A stretch of DNA of 64,000 nt, taken from IMG/VR virus record IMGVR_UViG_3300042370_000007, positions 3,188 to 67,187 of that record; one strand, 5' to 3'. This document shows, piece by piece, positions 2,447 through 61,990 of the stretch. Source of the DNA: a virus. The position numbers and the translations under genes are program-made. How positions within the stretch are numbered: position 1 is the first letter of the stretch; every line of letters starts with the position of its first letter. The notes below the pieces were generated by a model that did not search any database, had not been told where the DNA came from, and was given only the letters and a program-made list of their open reading frames with translations.

Positions 2447-3900
2447 AGCATCATCACCATCTCGTGGAGCCGGTCGCGCAGGCCCTGGCTGCGGTAGCGG
2501 TCGACCATATGCTGAAACTCGGCCAGGGTACTGGCCTTCCTGACGCGTGAAGCGGCGATCCGATCGTCGATCGAGTTGCCGCAGCGCAGCGTAACGTAGA
2601 CCGGCCGCCTGGTCTGGCCGATACGGTGGTTCCGGTCCTCGGACTGGATCCTGTCCTCGTAGCGGAAACTGTCGGCGTAAAACACGCTGTAGGCTGCCTC
2701 GTTGAGCGTCAGGCCGCGCCCGCCGACACCCATGGTCGCGACGAGGTGCCGCGGGCCGCCCGGCTGCCGCCAGCGGGCGAGGTGTTGCTGGCGGGCCCGA
2801 TCGCCGAGGCTGCCGTCATAGCGCACGGCGCTGCCCTCCCCGTCCCGCTCGGCCAACATCCGGACGATCTCGTCGGTCGAATGATGGTACCGCGACCAGA
2901 TGATCACCTTGTCTTCGCGCGGGATCTCGTCCAGCACGCCGGCAAGCAGCGACAGCCGGTTATGCGGCACGGTGATCAGCTCACGGGTCCCATCCTCGCG
3001 CAGCCGGCGCCAGAAGCCGCAGGTGATCGTTTGCAGGACCGAAAACAGCCGCAGGATCTGCAGCCGCTCCCAGTCGTGCCGAGCGAGGTCGAGCAGCAGT
3101 TCGACCTTGGCGCGCTCGTACAGGTCGCGCTGCTGGCCTGTCATCGTGCAGAACCGGTCGGCATAGAGTTTTTCGGGCAGGTCCAGGCATTCGTCCTTCC
3201 GCACCTGGTAGACATAGGGCGCGATCTTGGCGGCCAGCCACTCGACATTGTGGCTGCGGATGATCCGGCCGGTGCGGACACGGCGCCCGAAACCGTCCCG
3301 CCGCACCTCGTATTCCAGGTGGTTGGCCGCGAACGACCAGAACGAGCGATAGCCGAGGATCTTTGGGCTCAGGAACCGCATTTGCGAATACAGGTCCACC
3401 GCGCCCTGGGTAAGCGGGGTTCCGTTCAGGACGGCGCGGTACCGGGCCCGCTCGCTCATCGCCGTGATCCGCTGCGTCCGCCGAGCCATCGGCCCCTTGA
3501 TGTAAGCAGATTCGTCGACGGCGACGAAGGTCTGATCGGTCACCATGCCCGCGAATGCCGTGACGGCACGATCGCTCGACGACATCGTCTCGATCCCGAT
3601 GATCTGGACGGGCTGGGTCGGTCGCCGGTCCGAGTGGACATGATCGTCCCAGACCGCGACCTGATCGGGCGGAATGTCGGTATGGATCGCGATCTGCTGG
3701 CGCACCGTCTCCTTCAGCGAGCAAGGCGCGAACCAGTAGAGCCGGTCCCATTTGTGGCCCCGGAGCCGGGCGAGCTCGAGCAGCACGCGGCTCTTTCCGG
3801 TGCCCATGTCCATGAACAATCCGCCGACCCGCGCCGGCAGCAGCTTGGCCACTGCCGGCGGCTGGTGGGGCAGCAGGTCAGTCGTGGTCGAGAAGATCAT
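2443..3900 (-). CDS. SNF2-family helicase/ATPase
   Basis: Walker A DMGTGKS, VDESAYIK, LNGTP, QSEDRNHRIGQ; ATGA coupling to ibrA. Confidence 0.9.
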   Translation of the reverse strand: MIFSTTTDLLPHQPPAVAKLLPARVGGLFMDMGTGKSRVLLELARLRGHKWDRLYWFAPCSLKETVRQQIAIHTDIPPDQVAVWDDHVHSDRRPTQPVQIIGIETMSSSDRAVTAFAGMVTDQTFVAVDESAYIKGPMARRTQRITAMSERARYRAVLNGTPLTQGAVDLYSQMRFLSPKILGYRSFWSFAANHLEYEVRRDGFGRRVRTGRIIRSHNVEWLAAKIAPYVYQVRKDECLDLPEKLYADRFCTMTGQQRDLYERAKVELLLDLARHDWERLQILRLFSVLQTITCGFWRRLREDGTRELITVPHNRLSLLAGVLDEIPREDKVIIWSRYHHSTDEIVRMLAERDGEGSAVRYDGSLGDRARQQHLARWRQPGGPRHLVATMGVGGRGLTLNEAAYSVFYADSFRYEDRIQSEDRNHRIGQTRRPVYVTLRCGNSIDDRIAASRVRKASTLAEFQHMVDRYRSQGLRDRLHEMVMML

Positions 3901-5891: not shown

Positions 5892-6015
5892 CTGGGCGTC
5901 GCGGAGGAGCGGCTGGCCGCGCGATTGGGGATCTCGCCGCCGCCCGAGGACGACGGATCTGCCCCTGACGCATAATGCGTGTCGAAACCCGGCAACCCGG
6001 CTGCTAGGCTCGGCC

Positions 6016-6909
6016 GTGGGAACTGGGGAGGCGATTTTGGCAACCAACAGAGTGCTGCTGCAGGCCGCGGCCTGGGCGATCGTGTCCGGCGCGGCGTTCG
6101 CGGCGTCATCGGCCGCGGCGAAGCTAGCCGGGGTGAGGCTGCCACCGGCCGAGGTCAGCCTGTTTCGTGCCCTGGCCGCCGCGATCGTCGTAGCGGCGGT
6201 GTTTCGCCTCGATGCGGTCGATTGGCGCCGCGCGCGCGACCCGGGCTGGCACGCGGTCCGCGTTGTGAGCGGCGTCCTGGCCCTGATTGCCTTCATGTTC
6301 GCCGTCACCGCGCTGCCGATCGCGGTCGCCCAGCTGCTGCTGCTGACCCGCGTGCTGCTGATGCCGGTCTGCGCCCGTATCCTGCTGGGCGAGCCGCTGT
6401 CGGGACGGTTGGCCACCGCGGCCGTCGTGGGGCTGGTCGGCGCCGCCGTGACCGTCTGGCCGGCCCTGACGGTCGGAGGGCAGCTGCTGGGCGTCCTGGC
6501 GGCACTGGGCGCGGCGATCAGCACCGCCCTGTCCCAGACCGCCGTCCGCCGCCTGTCCGTCTCCAACTCGCCCGCCCTAATCGTCTGCATCTATGGCATC
6601 GGCGCGGCGGTGCTGCTGGCGCCCGTCACGGCCGTGACGGGCTGGGTAACGCCGCCGGCCTCGAGCTGGGGCGCGCTGGTGGCGCTCGGCATCGCGGCCG
6701 CCCTGGCGCAGTACGCGGCAGTGGCCGCCTTCCGACTTGGGCCGGTCGCCTATATCGCCCCGCTGGACTTCACCGGCATCCCGATCGCGGCGGCCGTCGG
6801 CTACCTGCTGTTCGGCGACGTGCCCAGCCGATTCGATCTGGTCGGGGCCGCCCTGATCGTCGGCAGCGCCTGGTACGTCATCCGGACCGGGCCACCCGGG
6901 ACGCGCTGA
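6016..6909 (+). CDS. DMT/EamA family transporter (about 10 TM)
   Basis: Repeated hydrophobic helices; LPIAVAQLL and APLDFTGIPIAAAVGYLLFGDVP EamA signatures. True start may be TTG at 6037. Confidence 0.88.
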   Translation: MGTGEAILATNRVLLQAAAWAIVSGAAFAASSAAAKLAGVRLPPAEVSLFRALAAAIVVAAVFRLDAVDWRRARDPGWHAVRVVSGVLALIAFMFAVTALPIAVAQLLLLTRVLLMPVCARILLGEPLSGRLATAAVVGLVGAAVTVWPALTVGGQLLGVLAALGAAISTALSQTAVRRLSVSNSPALIVCIYGIGAAVLLAPVTAVTGWVTPPASSWGALVALGIAAALAQYAAVAAFRLGPVAYIAPLDFTGIPIAAAVGYLLFGDVPSRFDLVGAALIVGSAWYVIRTGPPGTR

Positions 6910-50016: not shown

Positions 50017-52190
50017 CAGGCAGCCATCCTTTCGAGCGATGGATCGAAGGCATCGGGCGCATTCGCCTCGACCAGCAGGCGGGCCATGCGCGGCGGGACG
50101 CTGTTGCCCACCAGGCGCATGGCCTGGGTCTTGTTCAGCGGCTGGCGCAGCATGACGACCTTGCCGTCGTCGCCGATCACCGGCTGGCCCTTCAGGGGGC
50201 CGCGGGTGTGGCGCTTCGGGAGCTCGATGGTCTCGGGAAGGCGCAGTTCGTGCGCGGCCGCGGCCTCGTGGGGCCGCAACATACGCATTCCGATATCGGC
50301 GATGATGTAGGGGCCGACCGTCACGAACTCGCCTGGGCCATCCCATGCGCCGTACTTCCTCAGGAAGGCCGCGACCTGCCGGGCCCGCGCCAGCTGCGCA
50401 TCGGTCAGCGGCGGCGCCTGCATCTCGGCCATGGCCGGGGCGAAGCGATCCCGCGTCGGCTGGGTGTTCAGCCCGTCGCGCATATCCTGGTGCTGGCCGC
50501 CGGTGCCGTAGTATTCGGCGATGAACGCCGCGCCGACCCCGACATGATCGCCGCCCTTGCCGCCGCCGGTGGCCAGGGTGCGCATGGCGTCCTCGACCGA
50601 GGTCGGAACGCCGGTACCGCGCTGGTGGACCAGGAGGGCCGCCGCCACCTGCTGCTGGTTGGGCACCGTGGTGATGACACCGAGGCCTTCGCCGAGGTCG
50701 CGCCCGACATTGCCGGTGTTGTGCTGGGCGAGCCACGCGGCCCCGACCGCTACCGGACCTTCGCGGGTGACCAGCGCTGGCACCGGATCGAGGGGCGAAT
50801 GCCCGACCATGCCGGTGTTGTTCTGGACCAGCCAGGTGCCGGCCAGCGCGTGGTGCTCGACCGCCGTCTGAGCACCGAGGGCCCGGTCGATCGGCTGACC
50901 GACCGAGTTGCCGCGATGCTCGGCCACGAAGGTCGACATCACCGCGAACTCTCCGCCCTTGACCCCGGCGGTAAACGTCGGCGCGGCATCGGCACCATCA
51001 TGGGCGGCGCGGCGCTTGCCCTTGGTCCGATGCGTGGTCGAGACCAGCGTCGGCACGGCGAGGCCGATCTCGCCGCGATGTGCCCCGGTGATCGTCGTCA
51101 TCGCGTCGGCCAGATCGAGCGGCGGGCGCTGGCCCTGGTGGGTCAGTCGCACCAGGAAGGGCTGCGCGGCCTGCAGCACGAAGCGCTTGACGCCATCGGC
51201 CAGCCGCTGTTCGGTCGCGCGGACGAGGGCCTTCTCGCGGTCGAAGATCGAGTTGATCGGCAGCGACCAGTCGATGATCTGCGCGGCCGGCACGTGCGGC
51301 AACAGCCGGCCGGAACGGACCGTTTCCTCATGCCGGTAATCGTGGGTCTGTTCGGGCCACGCGATCGCGCCACCATCGTAGCGGGCGACGCCGAACAGGC
51401 GCTTGCGGGTGGTCGGCACGCCGTAATGGCCGATCACGAGGTCGCGATCCTGGTACACGCCGCCGAAGCCGAGCATGTGCTTGACCCAGCGCCGGTACCG
51501 GCGGCCGGCCTTGCGCTTGTTGGTGTCGCGCGTCAGTGCCTGCAGCTTGCGCGGCACGACCTCGCCCGGTGCCGCGACGGTCCCGTCGACCTTGATCACG
51601 CGGCCGGTGAGCTTGCAGCGCTTGGCGATCAGCCGCGACCAGGACCGGATCTCGCGGACGTTCTCGAGGAAAACCATGTCCGGACCCAGACCGCGCTTGC
51701 GATGCGTGCCGGTCCAACGGCACAGCTGCCAGGGCATCGACCGGACGCGGTTCGATAGCAGCGCGCCGCCCACCGCGACCGAATGGTGGGTGCAATCCGG
51801 GCTGCCCCAAAGGATCCTGATCCGCCGGCCGCGTGTCGCCTTCAACGGGTCGACCTCGAAGATATCGGCCTGGATGTGCTCGGTATGGGGGTGCAACGCC
51901 CGATGCGCGGCAATTGCGACTTCGTCGTGGTTCAGCGCGATGTGGACCGGGTAGCCGGCATCCTCGATACCCTGGCAGGCCCCGCCGACACCCGCGAACA
52001 GCACCACGTTGATACCGTCGCCCAACTTCCAGGCACGGCGCCGCTCGTCCGCCAGCCTGCGGCGATCGGTGCGGCTGGTCGCCCGGCGCTCGCCGCGCAT
52101 CGGACCCGGCCGCCGGCCACGCGGCAGGCTGGGCGCCTCGTGGTCGAACAGATCGCCAGCCGTGGCAATGGCCTTCGCGTGTTGCGCCAT
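50016..52190 (-). CDS. dcm: DNA (cytosine-5)-methyltransferase with long repetitive variable region
   Basis: LFAGVGG, SPDC, FLENVRE, PTTRKRLF and GNSVPP motifs. Confidence 0.93.
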   Translation of the reverse strand: MAQHAKAIATAGDLFDHEAPSLPRGRRPGPMRGERRATSRTDRRRLADERRRAWKLGDGINVVLFAGVGGACQGIEDAGYPVHIALNHDEVAIAAHRALHPHTEHIQADIFEVDPLKATRGRRIRILWGSPDCTHHSVAVGGALLSNRVRSMPWQLCRWTGTHRKRGLGPDMVFLENVREIRSWSRLIAKRCKLTGRVIKVDGTVAAPGEVVPRKLQALTRDTNKRKAGRRYRRWVKHMLGFGGVYQDRDLVIGHYGVPTTRKRLFGVARYDGGAIAWPEQTHDYRHEETVRSGRLLPHVPAAQIIDWSLPINSIFDREKALVRATEQRLADGVKRFVLQAAQPFLVRLTHQGQRPPLDLADAMTTITGAHRGEIGLAVPTLVSTTHRTKGKRRAAHDGADAAPTFTAGVKGGEFAVMSTFVAEHRGNSVGQPIDRALGAQTAVEHHALAGTWLVQNNTGMVGHSPLDPVPALVTREGPVAVGAAWLAQHNTGNVGRDLGEGLGVITTVPNQQQVAAALLVHQRGTGVPTSVEDAMRTLATGGGKGGDHVGVGAAFIAEYYGTGGQHQDMRDGLNTQPTRDRFAPAMAEMQAPPLTDAQLARARQVAAFLRKYGAWDGPGEFVTVGPYIIADIGMRMLRPHEAAAAHELRLPETIELPKRHTRGPLKGQPVIGDDGKVVMLRQPLNKTQAMRLVGNSVPPRMARLLVEANAPDAFDPSLERMAA

Positions 52191-52269: not shown

Positions 52270-53103
52270 TCATGCCGTGCCCTCCATGGCCATGCCGGCG
52301 AGGGCATGACGCGTCGCGGCCGCCCGCTGCACGTCGGCCGGTGCGGGCTGGCCGAGGTCGGCCCCCGGATCGGCGAAGGCCGGCAGGCGCAGGTTTTCCA
52401 GGAACCGCATGCGGCTGGCGTGGATCAGCACCGTCTCGATCGGCACGCCATCGACAGTGACGATCACCCCGGCCTCGACCCCGTCGGCCCCATAGACCGG
52501 GAATGCGCGCCGCATCAGCGGCGGGTGGCTGACCGAGATGCACCATGACCAGCGATAGTTCGCGGTGGCGATCAGTGTCAGCAGGCGGACCAGCAGGCGG
52601 TTGACGCGGCTGTCGGCCGTGGTGTGCTGGCGCGACACCCACAGCCCGCCGGCGACGGCCACGTCGCAGGAGCGGATTTCGGTGGCCTTGGCGGCGCGGC
52701 AGATCACCGCCTCGCCGTCCGGCGCCTGGCGCGGATCGGCGTAGAGCAGCGTCCGGCTTTCCAGCGCCTCGCGCAGCGTGCCGTCGATCCAGCGGATGCG
52801 GACCGAGCCTGACGCTACCGGGCGGCCCCCATCGGTGAGAACCACGATCGCGGTGTCGTGCCGGCCGGCCTCGGGATGCAGGGCGGCCCGCGAAAGCTGG
52901 TAGAAGCTGGCGCGGTCCGGATCCTCTGCCTTGATCGCGGCCAGTGTGCCGAGGTCATGGCTGACCCAGGGGACGAGGCCGGCCTCGCAGGCCGCGTTGA
53001 CCAGCCTCGGGGCGGTATCGAGCCCTACCGCCTGCCGGTCGGCGCGGCCGAGCGCGTCGCCGGTGAGGGCGTCGAGATAGGGAACGGCGCCGGGCACGAT
53101 CAT
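52270..53103 (-). CDS. Putative GNAT/autoinducer-synthase-fold protein
   Basis: PVASGSVR strand and AGGLWVSRQH motif-A-like segment (inference); coupled to the HTH-PAS gene. Confidence 0.4.
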   Translation of the reverse strand: MIVPGAVPYLDALTGDALGRADRQAVGLDTAPRLVNAACEAGLVPWVSHDLGTLAAIKAEDPDRASFYQLSRAALHPEAGRHDTAIVVLTDGGRPVASGSVRIRWIDGTLREALESRTLLYADPRQAPDGEAVICRAAKATEIRSCDVAVAGGLWVSRQHTTADSRVNRLLVRLLTLIATANYRWSWCISVSHPPLMRRAFPVYGADGVEAGVIVTVDGVPIETVLIHASRMRFLENLRLPAFADPGADLGQPAPADVQRAAATRHALAGMAMEGTA

Positions 53104-54212
53104 CAGCCGATCGCCCCGCCGGCCCGCGGGGCCTGATAGATGTCGGCCAGGGACAGTACGAAAGGCAGGCCGCCCGGCCCGGCCAACGGCAGGGCCAGCC
53201 GGCGATAGGCGCCACCGTCGAACCGGGTTCGGATGGCGAGATCGTGCAGGGCCGGCTGGCCCTCGGCCATTACCGCGTCCAGCTGGGCCGCGACCATGTC
53301 GCCGTAGACCTGGTCGCGCATGTCGGCGAGGCGGCGGCCATCGAGATCGCGGCGCAGGCAGGTGCCCGGCCCGGCCGAGACCACGGTCCACCCGTCATCG
53401 TCGCGCCGCAGCAGCGAGGCACGCTCGTGCCCGGGCAGCGTGCGCAGTTCGGCCAGCATGCTGTCGAGCGGCGCGGCACGGCCGCACCATGCCCGGCGCA
53501 ATGCGACCTGGGCCGGGTCGGCCATCGTGTCGGGGTTCAGCCGTGCCGCCCGGATGCTGGTGGAAATCTGGTCGGCCAGATCGACATTCGCGGCAGCGGC
53601 CTCGAGCGCGGCGACGGCGGCGCGCAGCGTATCGTACCGGCGGGCGGCCCAGGCCTCGCCCTGCAGCGTTCTGATCTCGATATCGAGCCAGGCTCTGCCC
53701 TGCTCGGCCAGCCATGCCGCCGCCCGCCGCGCCGCCTCGGGGCTGACCCCGACCGCCTTGCGGATGATCAGGCGCCCGTCGGTGCGGGCCGTAAGCTCGA
53801 CCCAGCCGAGCATGCGCAGCGCATAGACCGGCGCGTCGACCTGGGCCGCGGGATGCAGCCGCAGCACCTCGCGCACATGCTGGGCCGGGCCATGGGGCGC
53901 GGTGACCATGTGGCCATCGTCGCTGATCACGAAGGCCCGATCGCCTGCAGGCACGGCGGCGGGCCGGCGCGCGGCCATCTCGGGGAACACCTCGGCCAGC
54001 AGGTCGAAATCGCCGCGGGCGGCGAAGAACCGGTCCAGCTCGGCGATGCCGTCGACCGGCGCGGCCACCTCGTCGCGCATCCAGCGGCCGATCGTATCGG
54101 CGCTGCGGCCGACGCCCGCCGCCGCGACCTTCTGGGAGACGGATTTGCCCGGACCGATGCGACGGTCGAGGGCGGCGGCGAGGCGCTGGCGCGCCGACGC
54201 GCTGGCGATCAT
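53103..54212 (-). CDS. CII-position HTH protein with C-terminal PAS-like domain
   Basis: N-terminal QKVAAAGVGRSADTIGRW HTH; C-terminal VSAGPG...DGRRLAD...YRRLALPL PAS-like pattern. Confidence 0.6.
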   Translation of the reverse strand: MIASASARQRLAAALDRRIGPGKSVSQKVAAAGVGRSADTIGRWMRDEVAAPVDGIAELDRFFAARGDFDLLAEVFPEMAARRPAAVPAGDRAFVISDDGHMVTAPHGPAQHVREVLRLHPAAQVDAPVYALRMLGWVELTARTDGRLIIRKAVGVSPEAARRAAAWLAEQGRAWLDIEIRTLQGEAWAARRYDTLRAAVAALEAAAANVDLADQISTSIRAARLNPDTMADPAQVALRRAWCGRAAPLDSMLAELRTLPGHERASLLRRDDDGWTVVSAGPGTCLRRDLDGRRLADMRDQVYGDMVAAQLDAVMAEGQPALHDLAIRTRFDGGAYRRLALPLAGPGGLPFVLSLADIYQAPRAGGAIG

Positions 54213-54637
54213 GCGGTTTCCCCGTTGTGCTGTTGGGTCTGAAGGGGCTGGCCGGCCGTGGCGGCGGCATGCAGATCTGCCTGACCGCGGGTGCAGACAT
54301 GCGCGGTGGCCTGGTACATCCTGGCGCCATGGAGATCGATGTCGCTCAGACCGGATGCACGAAAGACGAGGCCCAGATCGGCCGGGTGCATGCGCGTCGG
54401 CCGGAAGGGGCCATAGGCCGACATCCTCGGCCGGTTCGCGCCGCCTCGCTCCCGGATCGGGACGCCGTAGCGATGCAGGATCCCGTGGATCGCGCTGCGG
54501 CTCAGGCTCGTCTGCCGGGCGATATCCGGCATCGACAGACGATCGACCGTGTAGAGGCGGCAAACCCGGAAATCGCGCGCTTCGAGCTTCTGCCGGAAGC
54601 CGGGCGCGACGTCGCCCATGTCGTCCGCATCCGTCAT
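54209..54637 (-). CDS. HTH DNA-binding protein
   Basis: RLYTVDRLSMPDIARQTSLSRSAIHGIL. Confidence 0.7.
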   Translation of the reverse strand: MTDADDMGDVAPGFRQKLEARDFRVCRLYTVDRLSMPDIARQTSLSRSAIHGILHRYGVPIRERGGANRPRMSAYGPFRPTRMHPADLGLVFRASGLSDIDLHGARMYQATAHVCTRGQADLHAAATAGQPLQTQQHNGETA

Positions 54638-54694
54638 GCGCGGCCACCCGCCCGGACCGGGGCGACGATGGCGAAGGCCCGTGCGATCGCCATC

Positions 54695-54892
54695 TCAGCG
54701 CCTCACCATCAGCCGGCCGGCACCCAGCGCCAGGCCGATGGCAAACAGGATGAACAGCGCCGCCAGCACCTCGCGCCCGGCGGCGATGAAGCCGATGGCC
54801 GCGGCGATGCAACCGAGGAACAGCACGGCGGCGAACAGCAGGATGAGTATCCGGCCGACCTGGTCGCAGGCGTCGGAGAAGAACCAGTTCAT
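54695..54892 (-). CDS. Small two-TM membrane protein
   Basis: Two hydrophobic helices. Confidence 0.55.
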   Translation of the reverse strand: MNWFFSDACDQVGRILILLFAAVLFLGCIAAAIGFIAAGREVLAALFILFAIGLALGAGRLMVRR

Positions 54893-55087
54893 CTAGCCGC
54901 TCTCCCCGTTGCGGGAGCGCACCCAGTCGAGCCCGTCCTCGCCCTCGGCGAGGTCGGCCGGCTCGGGATGGGTGTAGGCGCGCCAGAGGCGCCATGCGCC
55001 GTAGACGATCAGCCCGATCGTGCCGCCGCTGAGGGCGGCCCAGACCAGGACCAGGGCGATCTGCCGGAGGTCGAGCAGGTCGGTCAT
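54893..55087 (-). CDS. Small single-TM membrane protein
   Basis: Hydrophobic N-half; coupled ORF. Confidence 0.55.
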   Translation of the reverse strand: MTDLLDLRQIALVLVWAALSGGTIGLIVYGAWRLWRAYTHPEPADLAEGEDGLDWVRSRNGESG

Positions 55088-55293
55088 GGGCGCACCGCAG
55101 GGCTCGGATCGGTTTCGGCCGCAAGCGCGGCGATCAGTTCATCCGTCGTCAGCAGGCGACGGATCGGGGGGCGCGGCTGATGGATATCGGTGAGCGGTTG
55201 CGCCATCGCCCGAGGCGGCCGATGCGCATGCAGCACGAAGGCGGCCAGCGCCTGCCCGCGGCCATCGGAGGCGAGCATCGCGGCCGGCGCCAT
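55084..55293 (-). CDS. Small hypothetical protein
   Basis: TGATG coupling with cro. Confidence 0.45.
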   Translation of the reverse strand: MAPAAMLASDGRGQALAAFVLHAHRPPRAMAQPLTDIHQPRPPIRRLLTTDELIAALAAETDPSPAVRP

Positions 55294-55511
55294 CAGGCGG
55301 CCTCACCGGTTCGGGTAGCCTCGACCGGCGCGTGCTTGGCGATAAGTCGCTGCGCTTTTTCAACCAATTCAAGGTTGGCCCGGCGCCCACGCCGCAGATC
55401 GAAGACAAAATTCGGATCGCTGACAGCCTCCTTGCCGAAAGCAGTCGCCGTCATGCCCGATGCTTTCAGGAACGCCTCGATCTCGGCCAGGAACGTTTCG
55501 CGCGTCAACAT
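55293..55511 (-). CDS. cro: Cro-like repressor
   Basis: 72-aa HTH (FLKASGMTATAFGKEAVSDPNFVFDLRRGR), divergent from cI. Confidence 0.85.
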   Translation of the reverse strand: MLTRETFLAEIEAFLKASGMTATAFGKEAVSDPNFVFDLRRGRRANLELVEKAQRLIAKHAPVEATRTGEAA

Positions 55512-55607
55512 AGGCCTATTGTGTAGGCCTATTCCTATTTGTCAAGCGGCATCGATAGGCATGTTCCTAGTGGGCGGCAACAGGAACCCGAAATAGGATG
55601 CTTCCTA
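55512..55607. promoter_or_regulatory. OR region: PR plus three TAGG-N6-CCTA operators
   Basis: Operators at 55524-37, 55556-69 and 55594-607; minus-strand TTGACA at 55540-45. Confidence 0.8.
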
Positions 55608-56068
55608 TGTCCGAACATGTGCGCCAGCTGGTTCTGAACCGCATCAAAGAACTGAGCCTCAACATGCGAGAGGTCTCGATTTCGCTGGGCAAAAATCACG
55701 CATACATTCAGCAGTTCATCGAACGCGGCGTACCGGCCTCTCTAAAAGAGGACGTCCGAGATGAACTTGCGAAAATCCTACAAGTTTCAGCCGATGATCT
55801 TCGCAGTCAGCCGAGAGTTGTTCTAAAGCCAGATACTCGACCGAACTTGTCCGAACGCGATACAAGCTTGCCGGTAAAACCTGGGCAGAGCTTCAATTTG
55901 ATAAACTATGACCTGTTGCGGCGATCTATTGCGGCCGCCTGTAGTATCTACGAGGGAAAGCCAACCGACCCCGGGAAACTCGCGAGGAAGGCAATTCAGA
56001 TTTATCGGAACGAGGAGCCCGATGAAGCAACCGCCCGCGAAGATGAACTTCAAGGGCCTGGACAGTAA
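55598..56068 (+). CDS. cI: CI-like repressor lacking the S24 autopeptidase domain
   Basis: MREVSISLGKNHAYIQQFIERGVP HTH typical of alphaproteobacterial phage repressors; only 156 aa with no Ser-Lys peptidase motif. Confidence 0.75.
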   Translation: MLPMSEHVRQLVLNRIKELSLNMREVSISLGKNHAYIQQFIERGVPASLKEDVRDELAKILQVSADDLRSQPRVVLKPDTRPNLSERDTSLPVKPGQSFNLINYDLLRRSIAAACSIYEGKPTDPGKLARKAIQIYRNEEPDEATAREDELQGPGQ

Positions 56069-56204
56069 GGCTGTAGAATGACGCGCAACCACGGACCGCG
56101 GCCGCCTCGGCATCTTCAGCACTGAACCCTTCCGCCACCAGCTCGGCGAAGAAGCGCTCAAACGTCGCTTCGATCCTGCTCCCGGTCATCGTCACCCCGA
56201 AACG

Positions 56205-56224
56205 GCGGGGGCTTTCGCCCCCGC
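56205..56224 (-). terminator. Hairpin/terminator between converging cI and the 56250 ORF
   Basis: GCGGGGGC-GAAA-GCCCCCGC on the minus strand followed by CGTTT. Confidence 0.5.
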
Positions 56225-56249
56225 ACAATGAACGCTCAGCCTATGCGCA

Positions 56250-56669
56250 TCAATGCACTGGCGCAGGAACGAAAATCAGGCAGAAGGCTGCCGCTCGCCC
56301 GTCGGAACGCGCTACTCCCGCTTCCGGGGCGAGAGTGATGCCAGCCTCGGCGAAAGCGGCGCGCGTGTTGCGCCAAGCCTCGGCGAACTCCGGCGTGCCC
56401 CAGGCATCGGTATCGTGGACCAGGCGAGATCCGGCGCCCCAGACGTCGGCCACGAACGTGCCGAGCGCGTCGGTATCCAGCACCTCGTGCAGCACGCGGT
56501 CAGCCAGGTCGGTCATCGCAAATTTCTGCACCCCGGCATGGCCGCATGCTTCGAGGATGATCCGGAGATCTTGATAGCCCTGCCCAACCTGGTCAGCGGT
56601 CATCCCCGTCGCAATGAGGGATTTCCCGTAAGTCGACGCAACAAAGTCCTGGGTGATCGTCTCAACCAT
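56250..56669 (-). CDS. Hypothetical protein cotranscribed with the PAS-LuxR regulator
   Basis: AGGAGG RBS, overlap with the LuxR stop. Confidence 0.7.
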   Translation of the reverse strand: MVETITQDFVASTYGKSLIATGMTADQVGQGYQDLRIILEACGHAGVQKFAMTDLADRVLHEVLDTDALGTFVADVWGAGSRLVHDTDAWGTPEFAEAWRNTRAAFAEAGITLAPEAGVARSDGRAAAFCLIFVPAPVH

Positions 56670-57732
56670 CTTGCCCTCCTGTTCGCCCCTCCGATGGGGC
56701 CCTCGTGATCGTCGACATCTGAAGGGCCAGTGCCAGCAGCCCCGGTCCGTCGACGGAAAGACCTCGATCGCGCAGGGCCGTTCGCGCCCGACTGATCGCC
56801 GCGTTGATTGTTCCCGGCGTCACATCGAGCTGAGACGCGATCGCCGAGGTAGGCATGCCTTGCATCATCGCCCCAAGCACTTCGACCTCTGACGCTCGAA
56901 GCCCGAGTTCGCGGAGCCAGTCGGCCGCCGGCGAGGAAAGTCGTTGACGCGGCACGGCAGCCAGCACAATGACAGTATTCTCGTGCTCACCGGGCAGCAG
57001 ATTGACGGCGAGCGCCGTTGTCCCGCCTCTACGCCGCAGCAAGGCGAGGCCGCGGCCGCCAGCGACCGCGGCGCGCAGCGCGTCTTGCCAGTGTTGCTCA
57101 TCGTCCGGATGCGCGGCAGCTACACGCCCTCCCGCCGCCGACACGAGCCCGTTGGCCTTGCGCACGAGGTCGTCGAACGCATCGTTGGCGTACAAGCGTG
57201 CGCCGCTCCCGGTCAGGATTGCCGTGCCAACCTCAGTCCGGTTTAGGGCGCGGCGCAATGCTGCAACGTCACGGGTGGCGCGCACGGCCGTTAGCAGGAC
57301 GGCTTCAGGATCAACGTCGGCCAGTTCACCCACCGGATGGCGCAGTTGTATCGACCAGCCGTTGTCGAGGCGGCGATTTGACATCGCCACCCGGCCGGTA
57401 GGATAGGCGTAAATCGTTTGGGTGAAGGTTTGGGTAGTGCGAACAATCTGGGAAACCTCCAGCCACGCTGAAGGGTTTGCCCTCGCAGCAGGATTGCCCA
57501 GCAGACCAGCGCGCTGCAGCAGCCAGAAAAGTTCGGTGTAGGTGAGGCCCACATATTCGGGCACAGGCATCAGCTGGCGCTGTCGCTCGTTTGCGAGGGC
57601 GACCCGGTCGTTAGGGTCAAGAAGGAGAATTGCGCCGCCGACACTGGCCGCGTTGGCTATCAGCGCCGTCGCGGTGTCGCCCAAGTCCGCAGGCAAATCC
57701 TGCAACCCAATGGTGTCGCCCCCGATCCCCAT
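56662..57732 (-). CDS. PAS-PAS-LuxR(HTH) transcription factor
   Basis: ILLLDPNDRVALAN..., AILTGSGARLYANDAFDDLV and LRASEVEVLGAMMQGMPTSAIASQLDVTPGTI motifs. Confidence 0.82.
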   Translation of the reverse strand: MGIGGDTIGLQDLPADLGDTATALIANAASVGGAILLLDPNDRVALANERQRQLMPVPEYVGLTYTELFWLLQRAGLLGNPAARANPSAWLEVSQIVRTTQTFTQTIYAYPTGRVAMSNRRLDNGWSIQLRHPVGELADVDPEAVLLTAVRATRDVAALRRALNRTEVGTAILTGSGARLYANDAFDDLVRKANGLVSAAGGRVAAAHPDDEQHWQDALRAAVAGGRGLALLRRRGGTTALAVNLLPGEHENTVIVLAAVPRQRLSSPAADWLRELGLRASEVEVLGAMMQGMPTSAIASQLDVTPGTINAAISRARTALRDRGLSVDGPGLLALALQMSTITRAPSEGRTGGQDG

Positions 57733-57994
57733 ACGTAAACCGTAACACAACCCAATGGGGCCGCAACCTAGAATCCTAGGGCACCACAAAAACAATCGGA
57801 GATCGCGTAACTCGCTACCAGCCTTAGAAATTGTGCCGCGAATTTTTTGCAATGGCACACGCGGAACGGGCGAGCGATTGGGCACAGATCCTCGGCGCAG
57901 AATGTACTCCCCGGCCGAGCCTAGGCGATGATCACCGAATTACCGACCGATCGTCCAGGTTTTTCGAGCGGGCGCGCCGTGATCGATTGCGGGC

Positions 57995-58261
57995 ATGCGG
58001 CTGCGCACCATCCTCGAACAGAACCTGCGGCTGCTCTGCCACGAGCGCGGCCTGTCGGTCGAGCGCCTGGCCGAGTTGTCGGGCATCTCCGATAGCTATT
58101 GCTGGCGAATATTGCGTAAGCGCGCAGGCATCGGCCTCGATCGGCTGGAGAGGCTGGCAGCCGGGCTCGGCGTACCCGCGTCCCGGCTCCTCGAGGAGAT
58201 CCCGGCCGACACGGTGATGCCGCCGCCGCTGAAGCGCGGCAGAAAGAAAAAGCAGGCGTAA
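57995..58261 (+). CDS. XRE-family HTH regulator
   Basis: NLRLLCHERGLSVERLAELSGIS...LERLAAGLGV. Confidence 0.88.
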   Translation: MRLRTILEQNLRLLCHERGLSVERLAELSGISDSYCWRILRKRAGIGLDRLERLAAGLGVPASRLLEEIPADTVMPPPLKRGRKKKQA

Positions 58262-58326
58262 GCACCCACCGGCCGCTCTCGTGTCGACGAACGGCTTACG
58301 CACCGGTCCGCGCCCGCACTATTTTT

Positions 58327-58376
58327 TGTATATACATTTATGTTGCGGCGGCCCGAATTATTGTATATACAATAAT
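58327..58376. promoter_or_regulatory. BrnTA autoregulatory palindromes
   Basis: Perfect 20-bp palindrome ATTATTGTATATACAATAAT (58357-76) ending just before the ATG; second TGTATATACA at 58327. Confidence 0.7.
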
Positions 58377-58378
58377 CC

Positions 58379-58645
58379 ATGATCACCTGGGACGAACCGA
58401 AGCGCCTCGCCAACCTCGCCCGCCACGGCATCGACCTGGCGCACGCCGAGCGGTTCGGTTGGGAAGATGCGCTGATCGCCCCGACCCACCAGGGCAACAG
58501 CGATCGCCCGCGGTTCAAGGCCATCGGCCTGCTGGGCGACCGGGTGATCGTGGTGGTTTTCTCCCCGCTCGGCACCGAGGCCATCAGCGTGATCTCGATG
58601 CGGCCGGCGAACAGGAAGGAGCGCGAGGGCTATGACCAGTCGTAA
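58379..58645 (+). CDS. brnT: BrnT family toxin
   Basis: ITWDEPKRLANLARHGIDL...VISMRPANRKER. Confidence 0.92.
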   Translation: MITWDEPKRLANLARHGIDLAHAERFGWEDALIAPTHQGNSDRPRFKAIGLLGDRVIVVVFSPLGTEAISVISMRPANRKEREGYDQS

Positions 58646-58919
58646 GGGGTACACGGCGGAGGACGAGGCTGCGGTGATGGACAGCCCGGAATGGACCGAA
58701 GAGGACTTCGCGCAGGCCAAGCGCGGGCGAGATGTTCTGCCCGCCGGCTTTCTGGCCAAGCGGCGCGGCAGGCCTCCGGCGGACGAGACCAAGGAGGCGA
58801 TCAGCATCCGCCTGGACCGGGACGTGATCGCCGCGTTCAAGGCCTCAGGCGATGGCTGGCAAGGCAGGATGAACGATGCGCTGAGGCAGGCGGCAAAGCT
58901 GCCGGCGAAGGAGCGCTGA
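58632..58919 (+). CDS. brnA: BrnA family antitoxin
   Basis: RGRPP...KEAISIRLDRDVIAAFKASGDGWQGRMNDALR. Confidence 0.92.
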   Translation: MTSRKGYTAEDEAAVMDSPEWTEEDFAQAKRGRDVLPAGFLAKRRGRPPADETKEAISIRLDRDVIAAFKASGDGWQGRMNDALRQAAKLPAKER

Positions 58920-59107
58920 ACTAGCGATCCAGGTCGAAACATCGCCCTGGATTGCGCCCAGGCGGCGACCATCTGCGCCATAGCAATCGAGATCCCCGAC
59001 AACGTGTAGCGGCCGCCTGGGCGCCATCTCCTTTGACGCCAGACCAAGGCGGCTTGACTCTCCCTTTGACAACCGATGAGATCATCAGGTGCTTGGGGGA
59101 GCAAACG

Positions 59108-59677
59108 ATGGGCGATCTGATCTATCGCGACAGCAGAATTGAAATCACCGAGGAATTAGTCCGCATAGGGGCGACCTCCTACGCGGTACCGACGATAAAT
59201 TCCGTCACTTCCGGGAAGCCGCCGATCGGCATCGGGAGGATTCTCCTGGCTGGGTTCGGCATGCTCCTGATCCTGTTCAGTCCGGCGTTCTTCCAAACAG
59301 GCTCTCCGCTGGGCGGCCTGATTTGTCTGGCTATCGCCGCCGCCACGATCTGGCCTGCGATCAACAGGTTCTTGAGCCACGCGCTGGAGATATCGACATC
59401 GTCGGGAGCCGTGACAGCACTGATGAGCCGTGATGGCACGTACATCGGCAGGATCCGGCAAGAGATTTTGAAGGCGATGAGCGCGGCCCGCGCGGTAAAA
59501 CCCTCCGCCGACTATCAACCGCCTCCGCGACTTAGGCCGATCGACCAGCCTGCCAGAGTTCAGGCCCCGCCGCCGGGCGACACGATGACCTGTCCCGACT
59601 GCGCAGAGACGATAAAGGCGGCGGCAAAAGTCTGCAGGTTCTGCGGGTACCGAGTGGTGCCCGGTGGCACGGAGTAA
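59108..59677 (+). CDS. DUF6232-like membrane protein with C-terminal zinc ribbon
   Basis: IEITEELVRIGATSYAV, two TM helices, CPDCAETIKAAAKVCRFCG. Confidence 0.7.
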   Translation: MGDLIYRDSRIEITEELVRIGATSYAVPTINSVTSGKPPIGIGRILLAGFGMLLILFSPAFFQTGSPLGGLICLAIAAATIWPAINRFLSHALEISTSSGAVTALMSRDGTYIGRIRQEILKAMSAARAVKPSADYQPPPRLRPIDQPARVQAPPPGDTMTCPDCAETIKAAAKVCRFCGYRVVPGGTE

Positions 59678-60009
59678 TGGCACGCGTCGGAACCGCCGTG
59701 CTCGCCATGGCGCTTAGCGTCGCACCAGCTGCCAGCTGGGCCAAAGACCCGGCATACGCGGCCTATCGCGCTGAAGTCCGGAAGCATACCGAGAAATCCT
59801 ACACGGCCAACAAGGCGCTGATCGACCCGTCCGGTGAGCGCGGCAAAGCGTCCGGCAAGGACCTCGACCATATCAAGCCGGTGAAGCAGTGCTTTCTAAC
59901 AGGACAGTCTGCCTCGAGCTGTGGCGCGGCATCGAACCTGAGGGTGATTGATGCCGGCAAGAACCGCTCGGAAGGGTGTCGAGCGGCCGGCTGTCGCACC
60001 CTAAACTGA
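59677..60009 (+). CDS. Exported HNH-like protein
   Basis: Signal peptide ending SWA-K; DLDHIKP...NLRVIDAGKNRSEG. Confidence 0.6.
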   Translation: MARVGTAVLAMALSVAPAASWAKDPAYAAYRAEVRKHTEKSYTANKALIDPSGERGKASGKDLDHIKPVKQCFLTGQSASSCGAASNLRVIDAGKNRSEGCRAAGCRTLN

Positions 60010-60038
60010 ACCCCGCTTTGGAGAGGCATTCGTCTTTG

Positions 60039-60782
60039 ATGCTCATTGCCAAGCTTCAGATTAAGCGCATGCTCCCGAAGAGCCTCGTGAACGGCGCGGA
60101 TTTCCTTGGCATCGCCGCGTGCGACGATGGCATGGAATACGTGATCAAGGATCGGAGCAGCCATCTCACGACGCCGCACAATGAGTGGTTTTGCAGTTGC
60201 TTGGCCGCAAGCGTCGGAATAGCCGTTCCGCCGTTTGCTCAGGTTGAGCTACCCACCGGAGAATATGCATTCGGATCGCGATGGGAGGGCGGCGTGGCAG
60301 CCGAGGACTGGCGCGTTTTATTGGCAAACAATAAATTAAAAATCGACGAATTCGCTTCTACGCTTTCTAAAATATGGGCCTTTGACCATTTTGTATTTAA
60401 TCCGGACAGACATTTTAGTAACTATATAGTTCGAAACTTAACAAATACCTATGGAATGCTTGCAATAGATTTCTCCCGAGCATGGCTTGACAGTGGATTT
60501 CCACCCGGCGACCTCCCTTTCAAAGACAAAGACAATACCATGATGTGTGCGCGAATGATCACGTCTGTATTTGGCAAGTATCTCATGCAGAATGAAATAG
60601 ATAAAACTTTGAACAGCATTTCAAAAGTGCATGAAGCGAGAGTATCAGACATCATCAATAGTCACCCAAAAAACTGGGTGACAGACACTCAAAGGGATGC
60701 TATACTTTCTTGGTGGAATTCAAGTAGAGACCAACGTCTAGATTTGATACGACAAGGATTTAATGATGGATCGTATCTATGA
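60039..60782 (+). CDS. HipA-like (HipA_2-type) kinase
   Basis: YVIKD, NEWFCSCLA..VGIAVP, FDHFVFNPDRHFSNY and IDFS motifs. Confidence 0.85.
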   Translation: MLIAKLQIKRMLPKSLVNGADFLGIAACDDGMEYVIKDRSSHLTTPHNEWFCSCLAASVGIAVPPFAQVELPTGEYAFGSRWEGGVAAEDWRVLLANNKLKIDEFASTLSKIWAFDHFVFNPDRHFSNYIVRNLTNTYGMLAIDFSRAWLDSGFPPGDLPFKDKDNTMMCARMITSVFGKYLMQNEIDKTLNSISKVHEARVSDIINSHPKNWVTDTQRDAILSWWNSSRDQRLDLIRQGFNDGSYL

Positions 60783-61596
60783 ATACTCAATCTTAGTCGC
60801 AACGCCTGACGACCGCCGGGGCGAAAAAGTCAACATTGGAATCGTGGTTTTCACGAACGAAGGCGTTGACTGCCGCTTTCGCCATGCAGACGCGAAATTG
60901 CGTGCGCTCACTGGCAGAACCTGGGAAGATGCGATTTCCGGTGCAGCAAATTTGCTGAGCAATCTCCGGAGGGCGGGCATACCGCCCACGGACATAGTGG
61001 GCGAACAATCCCTGCTTTCCGGGCTTATTAGGTCATCGTCTCTCGGCTGGTTCAAGGCGTCCGGCGAAGATGACTATCAAGAACAAGTGTCCAGCCTTCT
61101 GGCGGCTCTAGTGGATATACCAGCAAAGGCGAAGGCACAGCGCCAGCCCAGGATCATCACCGAAATGGCGGCGGCCTTTCGCAAGATTAAGCTTCTCGCC
61201 GCGCCCGACGAAGCGATCAAGAAAGGACGGATTGTTCGGAACTATGCTATCGCCGGCAACGAGGGCTTGACCGCCGACTTCGCAATGAAAAATGGTGTAT
61301 TACATGTCGCCAGCGCTTTAGATTTAAGAAAGCAGTCGGCAAATATTGATGAAGCAGCTTACAAATCTATCGTGCTTGATAAGGCAAGGAAGAAGTACAA
61401 GAAGACGCGAACGATCGGTGTGTATGCAGTCGACCCTTCACTAAAAAAACAATTCTCTGAGAACATTACCTTGCTTTCTGATTATTCTCATGACTCCTAC
61501 AACTGGTTGGAGGCAGCTGATCGTGAGAGGTTAATAAAGAGCCTCGCCGATGCCAGCCATGTTCGAGGCACATTACCCTTCAAGCAACTGACGTAG
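60763..61596 (+). CDS. DUF3037 domain protein
   Basis: YEYSILVATPDDRRGEKVNIGIVV N-terminus; overlaps the kinase stop. Confidence 0.8.
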   Translation: MMDRIYEYSILVATPDDRRGEKVNIGIVVFTNEGVDCRFRHADAKLRALTGRTWEDAISGAANLLSNLRRAGIPPTDIVGEQSLLSGLIRSSSLGWFKASGEDDYQEQVSSLLAALVDIPAKAKAQRQPRIITEMAAAFRKIKLLAAPDEAIKKGRIVRNYAIAGNEGLTADFAMKNGVLHVASALDLRKQSANIDEAAYKSIVLDKARKKYKKTRTIGVYAVDPSLKKQFSENITLLSDYSHDSYNWLEAADRERLIKSLADASHVRGTLPFKQLT

Positions 61597-61940
61597 GCCG
61601 TACCAGGGTGCTTTTTTAGGGCCCAATTGAACCCAGACCGATTTCCGTCGGACGGCACCGGCGGAAATTCTCGCTCCCGGCAGTCTGCGAACCCAGCCCG
61701 GGCGACCGGTTTTGTGGCGGCCGTCGAACGGGTCGCCTACGATCAGGGGCTTCCACCCACGCAGACGCGACAGATCCCCCTCGACGATCGCCCAACCTGT
61801 TTCCTTGGCATTTGGCCAGCCTCAGCCGCCGGGACGATTCGATGCGAGCGCAAGGTGACGTCGCTATGGCGGGTGCCCCTGTCCGATCCCCGTTGGAATG
61901 AGCCGAAAAAGCGCGCCGAGTTGCCTCATCGGCAACTTCA

Positions 61941-61990
61941 AATAGGTTTTTGCCTATTGACGTCGCCACCATTATAGGCCTATACCTATT
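61941..61990 (+). promoter_or_regulatory. OL/PL region: two operators and promoter
   Basis: TAGG-N6-CCTA at 61943-56 and 61975-88; TTGACG (61957)-N16-CCTATACC. Confidence 0.8.

Follow-up and report, generated by a model that had tools for sequence, protein, structure and literature searches.

Analysis of a 64,000-nt stretch of viral DNA (positions 3,188 to 67,187 of IMG/VR record IMGVR_UViG_3300042370_000007; hereafter the window) points, tentatively, to a sensory gene cassette captured from a host chromosome that would give a phage with a non-cleavable repressor a chemical input to its lysis-lysogeny switch. The window comes from a provirus record of 83,269 bp, and in this lambda-like alphaproteobacterial prophage, positions 52,270 to 57,732 correspond to the immunity region together with the beginning of the early operon. 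Its central genes encode a CI-type repressor, a regulator having two PAS domains and a LuxR-type (GerE) helix-turn-helix (HTH), a 139-aa protein and, diverging from these last two, an 88-aa HTH protein of the XRE family (XRE88), while a gene for an EamA-type transporter is found towards the left end of the window. The gene map was drawn from third-position GC and from independent gene calls on three Logan contigs carrying the same phage, which both agree, and the location of all features is given in Table 1.

The PAS-PAS-LuxR identity of the regulator, proposed in a first-pass annotation made from the sequence alone, was confirmed by structure prediction and by its relatives. The single Pfam match of the protein is a borderline one to GerE (24.7 bits for a cut-off of 23.5), with no Pfam PAS match in the window protein itself, and a phmmer search of the PDB matched it to the PAS region of PAL (6hmj; E = 3e-4). 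A word-based homologue search returned one LuxR relative and none for the 139-aa protein. More were recovered by an exhaustive HMMER search and by a query with an alignment, about 30 full-length relatives of the regulator (320-400 aa) coming from the HMMER search. Among 32 aligned family members, GerE was recognised in 14 (best E = 7e-12), PAS_8 in 14, PAS_4 in 10 and PAS_7 in three. The AlphaFold2 model (pLDDT 86.7) displays PAS-like domains at residues ca. 19-133 and ca. 165-259 followed by a four-helix HTH (residues 267-322), the ESM Atlas model agrees with this architecture, and Foldseek matched the AlphaFold2 model to the tandem-PAS sensors DosP, FixL (PAS-PAS), LOV-PAS, PpsR and NifL with E-values of 3e-10 to 1e-6. 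The Autoind_bind domain, which binds acyl-homoserine lactones (AHL), was not detected by Pfam in the regulator or in the 32 relatives, the N-terminal 260 residues being made up of two PAS folds. VqmA, the receptor of phage VP882, was absent from the 10 PDB chains recovered by phmmer at E up to 1 and from the Foldseek matches listed.

The regulator gene and the 139-aa gene lie, as first described, downstream of the cI gene and convergent with it. They overlap by 8 nt on the same strand, and the 139-aa protein would therefore be made together with the regulator and not in response to it. That the small gene is real was also upheld, by third-position GC, by the Logan gene calls and by a confident AlphaFold2 model (pLDDT 90.2, pTM 0.85) in which helices surround a sheet of three strands, the last of which is formed by the C-terminal segment that contains the Cys. 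The protein has no relative of solved structure in the PDB (best Foldseek E of 4.4, best VIA Z of 3.8) and no match in PHROGs, NCBIfam or PADLOC, and none of the 18 members of its family matched Pfam, the copy of which used here may lack PF27765. The model resembles a predicted UCP032817-like/GRDP-like cluster (PF27765, PF07173; TM 0.69 over 126 residues), a likeness between predicted structures only, and the literature on DUF1399/GRDP concerns plants only. Across 18 relatives, residues D34, D57, H61, H85, G91, T92 and W99 are invariant and C130 is nearly so. The window protein is 45% identical to the protein encoded at the chromosomal locus L008 versus 40% for the copy of phage L006, and the chromosomal orthologues follow a LuxR gene in loci that lack any phage repressor. 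These data suggest that the 139-aa protein is the ancestral, host-derived partner of the regulator and not a peptide of the Qtip type invented by the phage.

A feature of this partner family concerns its C-terminal end. The chromosomal members end in two to three tandem copies of a unit of ca. 15 aa, DGR[HQE]AE.CF[LM][ST]VGR (L007:2523-2963, L008:7001-7462 and L009:7001-7498), and the members found on phages or other mobile elements have a single unit, more diverged, which corresponds to the last sheet strand of the AlphaFold2 model. Such variation in the copy number of a strand-forming Cys unit is unusual and could serve to extend the sheet, to exchange strands or to provide a precursor with several cores. 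The last of these, as a precursor of ribosomally synthesised and post-translationally modified peptides (RiPP), was rejected as a lead for the phage copy, which AlphaFold2 places in the central sheet with high confidence, and is still conceivable for the chromosomal members having two to three copies.

In each of the nine contexts examined, the LuxR gene is followed by the partner gene, and where coordinates were read the two overlap or are separated by 5-28 nt. Four of these contexts are prophage types (the window, L002, L006/L021 and P0007) sharing one layout, with an XRE gene, EamA in some of them, the LuxR and partner genes, which converge on CI, and lastly Cro. Two are other mobile elements carrying the LuxR-partner pair, one with ParB and Toprim genes (L011) and the other with DUF932 and VRR_NUC genes (L012). 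The remaining three are chromosomal loci (L007, L008/L009 and L010) that occur beside mraZ-ftsI or lon-hupB-nuo without phage genes and in which an EamA gene either directly precedes the pair or lies nearby. A maximum-likelihood tree groups the phage LuxR copies in a single clade (96/92), itself nested among those of chromosomes and of other mobile elements, and the phage regulator is 35-41% identical to its chromosomal versions. Overall, the EamA transporter, the regulator and the ca. 140-aa partner most likely form a cassette that was captured once by a phage lineage from alphaproteobacterial chromosomes. A chromosomal-type copy occurs together with a prophage copy of the L006 type in one metagenome-assembled genome (MAG) of 7.9 Mb.

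Between the window and L006, identity amounts to 41% for LuxR, 40% for the partner and 33% for two early proteins (369 versus 362 aa and 277 versus 264 aa). Neither L006 nor the P0007 phage has the BrnTA, DUF6232 and HipA-like/DUF3037 genes of the window, and because the cassette and XRE are kept while these toxin-antitoxin or candidate defence genes are not, the former would represent a constant core and not cargo subject to turnover. Scans of IMG/VR and GTDB with the LuxR alignment detected no relatives, nor did blastn and tblastn searches of the INPHARED phages, and nothing relevant was found in the literature on EamA, LuxR, PAS and prophage combined.

The EamA protein of the window has two Pfam EamA repeats (42.7 and 39 bits, both above cut-off) and is 54% identical to the EamA protein whose gene precedes LuxR in L006 and 53% identical to that of the chromosomal L008 cassette. 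The gene adjoins LuxR in L006/L021 and is displaced by ca. 50 kb in the window. A 13-mer located upstream of it, CTAGGCTCGGCCG, has its only other exact copy of the window in the spacer between XRE88 and LuxR, a match of at least 13 nt between the two regions being obtained in 4 of 2000 shuffles. This 13-mer may be what is left of the spacer that once separated XRE from EamA, or else a regulatory site common to both regions, and its occurrence is consistent with a displacement of EamA from an ancestral XRE-EamA-LuxR order.

The repressor on which the LuxR and partner genes converge is of the XRE/434 type and has no self-cleaving domain, as opposed to the cleavable lambda/LexA type. CI is 153-156 aa long with a C-terminal domain of ca. 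45 aa, and as a single sequence it has no match in Pfam, PHROGs, NCBIfam or PADLOC. A profile built from CI and its L002 and L006 counterparts matches the DNA-binding domain of the 434 repressor (E = 1e-4) and, over its full length, a 129-aa "transcriptional regulator" (9sf2_A; E = 7e-6). With the L002 repressor, CI shares 50% identity over its residues 102-147, which match the C-terminus of that protein, the N-terminal HTH domains being unalignable. No Pfam Peptidase_S24 match occurs anywhere in the 83-kb record, in agreement with the first-pass annotation.

The spacer between the CI gene and the Cro-position gene (87 bp) contains both copies of TAGGCCTAT and all three ATAGG-N6-CCTAT sites of an OR-like cluster, and these sites overlap a sigma-70-like promoter (TTGACA-16-CACAAT, 55545-55518) that faces the Cro-position gene. 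An OL-like pair formed by ATAGGTTTTTGCCTAT and ATAGGCCTATACCTAT precedes the 197-aa/264-aa/ProQ operon, at a distance of 120 bp from a gene whose ribosome-binding site is strong. The operator motif has seven matches in the window for 0.36 expected, clustered at OR and OL, and since the same motif occurs at both clusters as an OR/OL pair, 55510-61989 corresponds to a lambda-style immunity region. In L006, a distant relative, the palindrome TGCATATGCA is found both in the CI-Cro spacer and in the spacer beside the XRE gene (regions L006:8090-8200 and L006:4320-4590). L006 has the same two-operator layout with another immunity specificity, and its different motif fits with a CI HTH that cannot be aligned with that of the window.

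The repressor is devoid of a cleavage domain, and no known antirepressor was recognised in the record. Peptidase_M78/ImmA, ANT and Bro-N had no match in the 83-kb record, and the M78 (COG2856) partner of an ImmR/ImmA or DdrO/IrrE type switch was not found in it. No alphaproteobacterial LexA box was detected in the immunity region, the host LexA motif possibly differing from this consensus, and the two GTTC-N7-GTTC matches of the window are at chance level and far from that region. Immunity-region spacers contained no convincing LexA site of the alpha, gamma or MC-1 type. Induction independent of SOS would be compatible with these searches, the absence of known parts not being proof.

Upstream of the LuxR gene, a perfect palindrome (CCTAG-N4-CTAGG) represents the sole perfect copy in the window, and similar palindromes occur just upstream of the chromosomal LuxR genes of L007 and L008. 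The LuxR start is not preceded by a Shine-Dalgarno sequence. In three phages, a conserved TTGTG(C/T)TA(G/C)(C/G)GT sequence ends 6 nt before the ATG (window 57733-57750, L002:3330-3353 and L006:5975-6000) and resembles an extended -10 element (TGnTAnnnT). This suggests that the LuxR transcript is leaderless, as is that of lambda cI when made from PRM, in which case the centre of the palindrome would fall near -41.5.

The divergent XRE88 protein belongs to HTH_31 (Pfam E = 1.9e-10) and is 39% identical to the XRE103 protein of L006, and an 88-aa HTH_31 gene occupies its position in the P0007 phage. It also resembles PADLOC capH (E = 9e-10) and the control proteins of restriction-modification systems, CapH being an HTH repressor of CBASS operons. 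Two-factor control by XRE88 and LuxR is plausible because XRE88 is both divergent and conserved.

A scheme can be drawn from the genes, folds, synteny, phylogeny and operators, which the analysis established. The phage regulator and its chromosomal relatives would bind one and the same small ligand, whose level would be set by the EamA transporter, and the partner would belong to the sensor, its action being directed at either the regulator or the ligand. The output of the regulator would then feed the lysis-lysogeny decision without any self-cleavage of the repressor. Candidate targets are its own promoter, via the palindrome at 57767-57780, the divergent XRE88 promoter and, through transcription reading past the partner gene, the strand antisense to cI. 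On that strand, which read-through from the LuxR operon would transcribe, a 100-aa ORF (55926-56228) antisense to the cI 3' end starts just below a terminator-like hairpin; it is not called by gene callers and has a poor codon bias.

This scheme is the one we prefer, at somewhat less than an even chance, and several points weigh against it. That the regulator binds a ligand, that the partner acts in sensing and that CI is affected at all are inferred. LuxR-type sites were found neither in OR nor in OL, and since CCTAG-N4-CTAGG occurs solely upstream of LuxR, with no enrichment elsewhere, no connection of the regulator to these operators emerges; reciprocally, a motif scan of the window found no CI operator at the LuxR promoter. 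The four phage contexts are all of a single lineage, and the position next to cI may therefore be inherited and not selected, and no recognisable cI lies beside the pair in L011 or L012. The coexistence of host and phage copies rests on a MAG for which a binning error is possible. Finally, retention of the transporter would also fit a cassette merely doing in the lysogen its chromosomal job.

That last point leads to the main rival explanation, unlikely on balance yet to be taken seriously, in which the cassette is a moron, that is a lysogenic-conversion cassette performing its chromosomal function (such as metabolite-responsive export) for the benefit of the host and with no input to the switch. 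It would account for the intact cassettes in chromosomes without phage genes, for the EamA gene kept by the phage and for the failure of motif searches to connect the regulator with OR or OL; moreover, the cassette sits in a lysogen-expressed region beside evident morons (BrnTA and HipA-like/DUF3037). However, XRE, LuxR and partner persist while the adjoining morons turn over, even between phages with only 33% identity in their early proteins, the phages have added a dedicated divergent XRE gene, and two further types of mobile element carry LuxR and partner with no EamA in the sequence examined there.

The model put forward in the first-pass annotation, in which a signal perceived by the PAS-LuxR protein leads to more of the 139-aa protein, which in turn binds and inactivates CI as Qtip and smORF antirepressors do, now appears improbable. 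In its favour are a CI without cleavage domain, a record with no other recognisable antirepressor or protease and a 139-aa gene adjoining cI, and a binding partner common to these repressors would fit with the conservation of the CI C-terminal domain but not of the HTH. Precedents exist in VP882 (PMC8284805) and in Aeromonas phages (PMC10432266). The model is weakened by chromosomal orthologues that are 45% identical, closer than some phage copies, in loci without CI, and by a protein that is globular, with invariant Asp, His, Thr and Trp and a near-invariant Cys, and not a short peptide. Its 8-nt, same-strand overlap with LuxR further implies synthesis along with the regulator and departs from the hallmark of TF-smORF and Qtip systems, namely a counter-oriented small gene having its own promoter activated by the transcription factor (TF).

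Slightly less probable still is a self-contained communication system in which the partner makes or matures a signal, EamA exports it and PAS-LuxR senses it, allowing signalling between lysogens or infected cells with the logic of arbitrium and the chemistry of small molecules. A candidate maker, exporter and receptor are indeed kept together in chromosomes and phages, D34, D57, H61, H85, T92 and W99 together with the near-invariant C130 give the partner an enzyme-like set of residues, and a receptor gene followed by a small gene recalls aimR-aimP. Nonetheless, Foldseek, VIA and Pfam revealed neither a catalytic fold nor any similarity to a synthase in the partner, EamA proteins are general metabolite carriers, and no output gene was identified. 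The corresponding scenario, that of an undescribed alphaproteobacterial maker/exporter/receptor system captured whole and used by the prophage to emit and read a signal that times induction or lysogeny, has the same slim chance. That the prophage expresses the genes as a module for defence or superinfection exclusion is very improbable, for although its position would correspond to that of lambda rexAB and its neighbours are toxin-antitoxin or candidate defence genes, LuxR and partner have no PADLOC match, the chromosomal copies lie in housekeeping neighbourhoods and no effector-like domain is present.

Table 1. Location of genes and sites in the window (coordinates in nt from the first position of the window).
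Feature	Position	Strand	Remarks
13-mer CTAGGCTCGGCCG	6004-6016	+	upstream of EamA
EamA/DMT transporter	6016-6909	+	two EamA repeats; probable start TTG 6037 after GGGGAGG
Methylase	end near 52190	-	gene map
277-aa early protein	52270-53103	-	gene map
369-aa early protein	53103-54212	-	gene map; N-terminal HTH
142-aa HTH protein	54209-54637	-	early operon; weak Pfam/NCBIfam HTH matches (HTH_58, YlxM, GcrA)
Small ORFs of 65, 64 and 69 aa			between the 142-aa HTH gene and the Cro-position gene; gene map
Cro-position gene, 72 aa	55293-55511	-	first of leftward early operon; diverges from CI
OR-like operator cluster	55510-55608		two TAGGCCTAT copies; ATAGG-N6-CCTAT sites at 55523, 55555 and 55593
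CI-type repressor	55598-56068	+	434-like HTH; short conserved helical C-domain; no S24
GC hairpin	56205-56224		8 bp and tetraloop; terminator-like with weak U tract; between convergent CI and 139-aa genes
139-aa gene, LuxR partner	56250-56669	-	gene map
PAS-PAS-LuxR (GerE) regulator, 356 aa	56662-57732	-	gene map
Palindrome CCTAG-N4-CTAGG	57767-57780		perfect; 34 nt upstream of LuxR ATG; lead only
13-mer CTAGGCTCGGCCG, second copy	57912-57924	-	XRE88-LuxR spacer
XRE88 (HTH_31), 88 aa	57995-58261	+	diverges from LuxR operon
BrnT/BrnA	58379-58919	+	right of XRE88
DUF6232, 110-aa, HipA_2-like and DUF3037 genes			right of BrnT/BrnA
OL-like operator pair	61942-61957 and 61974-61989		ATAGGTTTTTGCCTAT and ATAGGCCTATACCTAT; over rightward TTGACG promoter
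197-aa/264-aa/ProQ operon	ATG 62113	+	downstream of OL-like pair

In the early operon, the 369-aa protein had been described as an HTH-PAS protein in the CII position. As a single sequence it has no match in Pfam, PHROGs, NCBIfam or PADLOC, and an alignment of it detected no relatives in an IMG/VR scan. Its N-terminal HTH stands, since the L006 homologue (362 aa) matches HTH_31 (E = 2e-5) and the ESM Atlas places this domain with an HTH_3 cluster (0.91). The C-terminal 150 aa are probably PAS-like, their likeness to PAS-fold models being moderate (TM 0.74 by target and 0.37 by query). The "CII position" is a loose term because the gene comes after Cro, three small ORFs and the 142-aa HTH gene. 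As for the 277-aa gene, its label of GNAT/synthase found no support, no match being obtained in Pfam, NCBIfam, PHROGs, PADLOC or PDB sequences at E-values up to 0.1-10, and the making of a signal by this gene is therefore unsupported as well. A 33%-identical homologue comes after the 362-aa gene in L006, and the 369-aa and 277-aa genes, which both L006 and the P0007 phage retain side by side, appear to be core early genes.

Other features of the region were recorded along with these. The adjacent 64- and 65-aa early genes (54695-55087) encode strongly hydrophobic products that may span the membrane, as judged by eye from their translation, and their size and order are kept in the P0007 phage. 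The minus-strand operon runs on leftwards via AAA ATPase and helicase genes to further large genes, and the sole integrase match of the record is at its right end, outside the window. The HipA_2-like/DUF3037 pair (60039-61596) has a low GC content and weak matches to the PADLOC candidate PDC-M66A/B (E = 1.6e-6 and 1.5e-4).

Phage copies of host receptors that trigger induction without DNA damage are already known in a few plasmid-like phages of vibrios and Aeromonas. If correct, the capture of a host sensory cassette as an input to the switch would extend this principle to integrated lambdoid prophages of Alphaproteobacteria, to another receptor family (tandem PAS with a LuxR HTH) and to a phage that keeps the partner protein of the receptor and a transporter as well. 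The data also draw attention to a conserved and uncharacterised three-gene chromosomal cassette, of which the regulator-partner pair has been captured by at least three kinds of mobile element, which suggests a cue of interest to those elements. The prophage is a good candidate for a phage listening to a chemical cue of its host, and were it to both emit and read the signal, it would represent a Gram-negative, small-molecule counterpart of arbitrium.

Several known systems can be compared with this region. The immunity region of lambda has the order PL-rexBA-cI-PR, and here too, two operator clusters bracket the repressor and accessory genes expressed in the lysogen, the early operons diverge and int ends the PL arm; unlike lambda, the window phage has a repressor without S24 and accessory genes that include a sensory cassette and toxin-antitoxin pairs. 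The arbitrium system of Bacillus phages combines a TPR protein, AimR, with a peptide that is secreted, AimP. A receptor gene followed by a small gene beside the lysogeny switch of a temperate phage is common to both situations, whereas the 139-aa protein bears no sign of secretion or processing. The "solos" PluR and PauR of Photorhabdus combine, like the window regulator, a LuxR-type HTH with a PAS (PAS4) sensor, which in their case binds small molecules other than AHL, but they have a single PAS domain, are gammaproteobacterial, and are not known to have an obligate small partner or an EamA neighbour or to be carried by phages.

The analogy with VP882 made in the first-pass annotation holds in part. 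VqmA of VP882 is a PAS-HTH copy of the host receptor with ca. 43% identity to it, and VqmA structures are present in the PDB (6IDE, 6KJU and 7DWM) (PMC8284805). As with VqmA(Phage)-Qtip, a phage copy of a cytoplasmic PAS and HTH receptor of the host, diverged to 35-41% identity, occurs in the lysis-lysogeny region. The window regulator differs in having two PAS domains and no detectable sequence relation to VqmA, and the phage also keeps a transporter gene. The part of the analogy that does not hold is the small gene, which here is co-transcribed and host-derived, while Qtip is a divergent, phage-specific antirepressor. Finally, VP882 is a linear plasmid phage and the window phage an integrated lambdoid one with an alphaproteobacterial host.

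In Aeromonas phages, modules of XRE and LuxR next to cI drive SOS-independent induction (PMC10432266). Differences from the window are found in ARM81ld and Apop at several levels: the LuxR proteins have AHL domains in place of PAS, xre and luxR form one operon with a counter-oriented smORF of 52 codons whereas XRE is the counter-oriented gene in the window, and cI is autoproteolytic whereas the window CI lacks S24. By analogy, these modules would nevertheless constitute the nearest functional parallel, with a LuxR-type regulator and an XRE protein located beside cI in both cases (PMC10432266).

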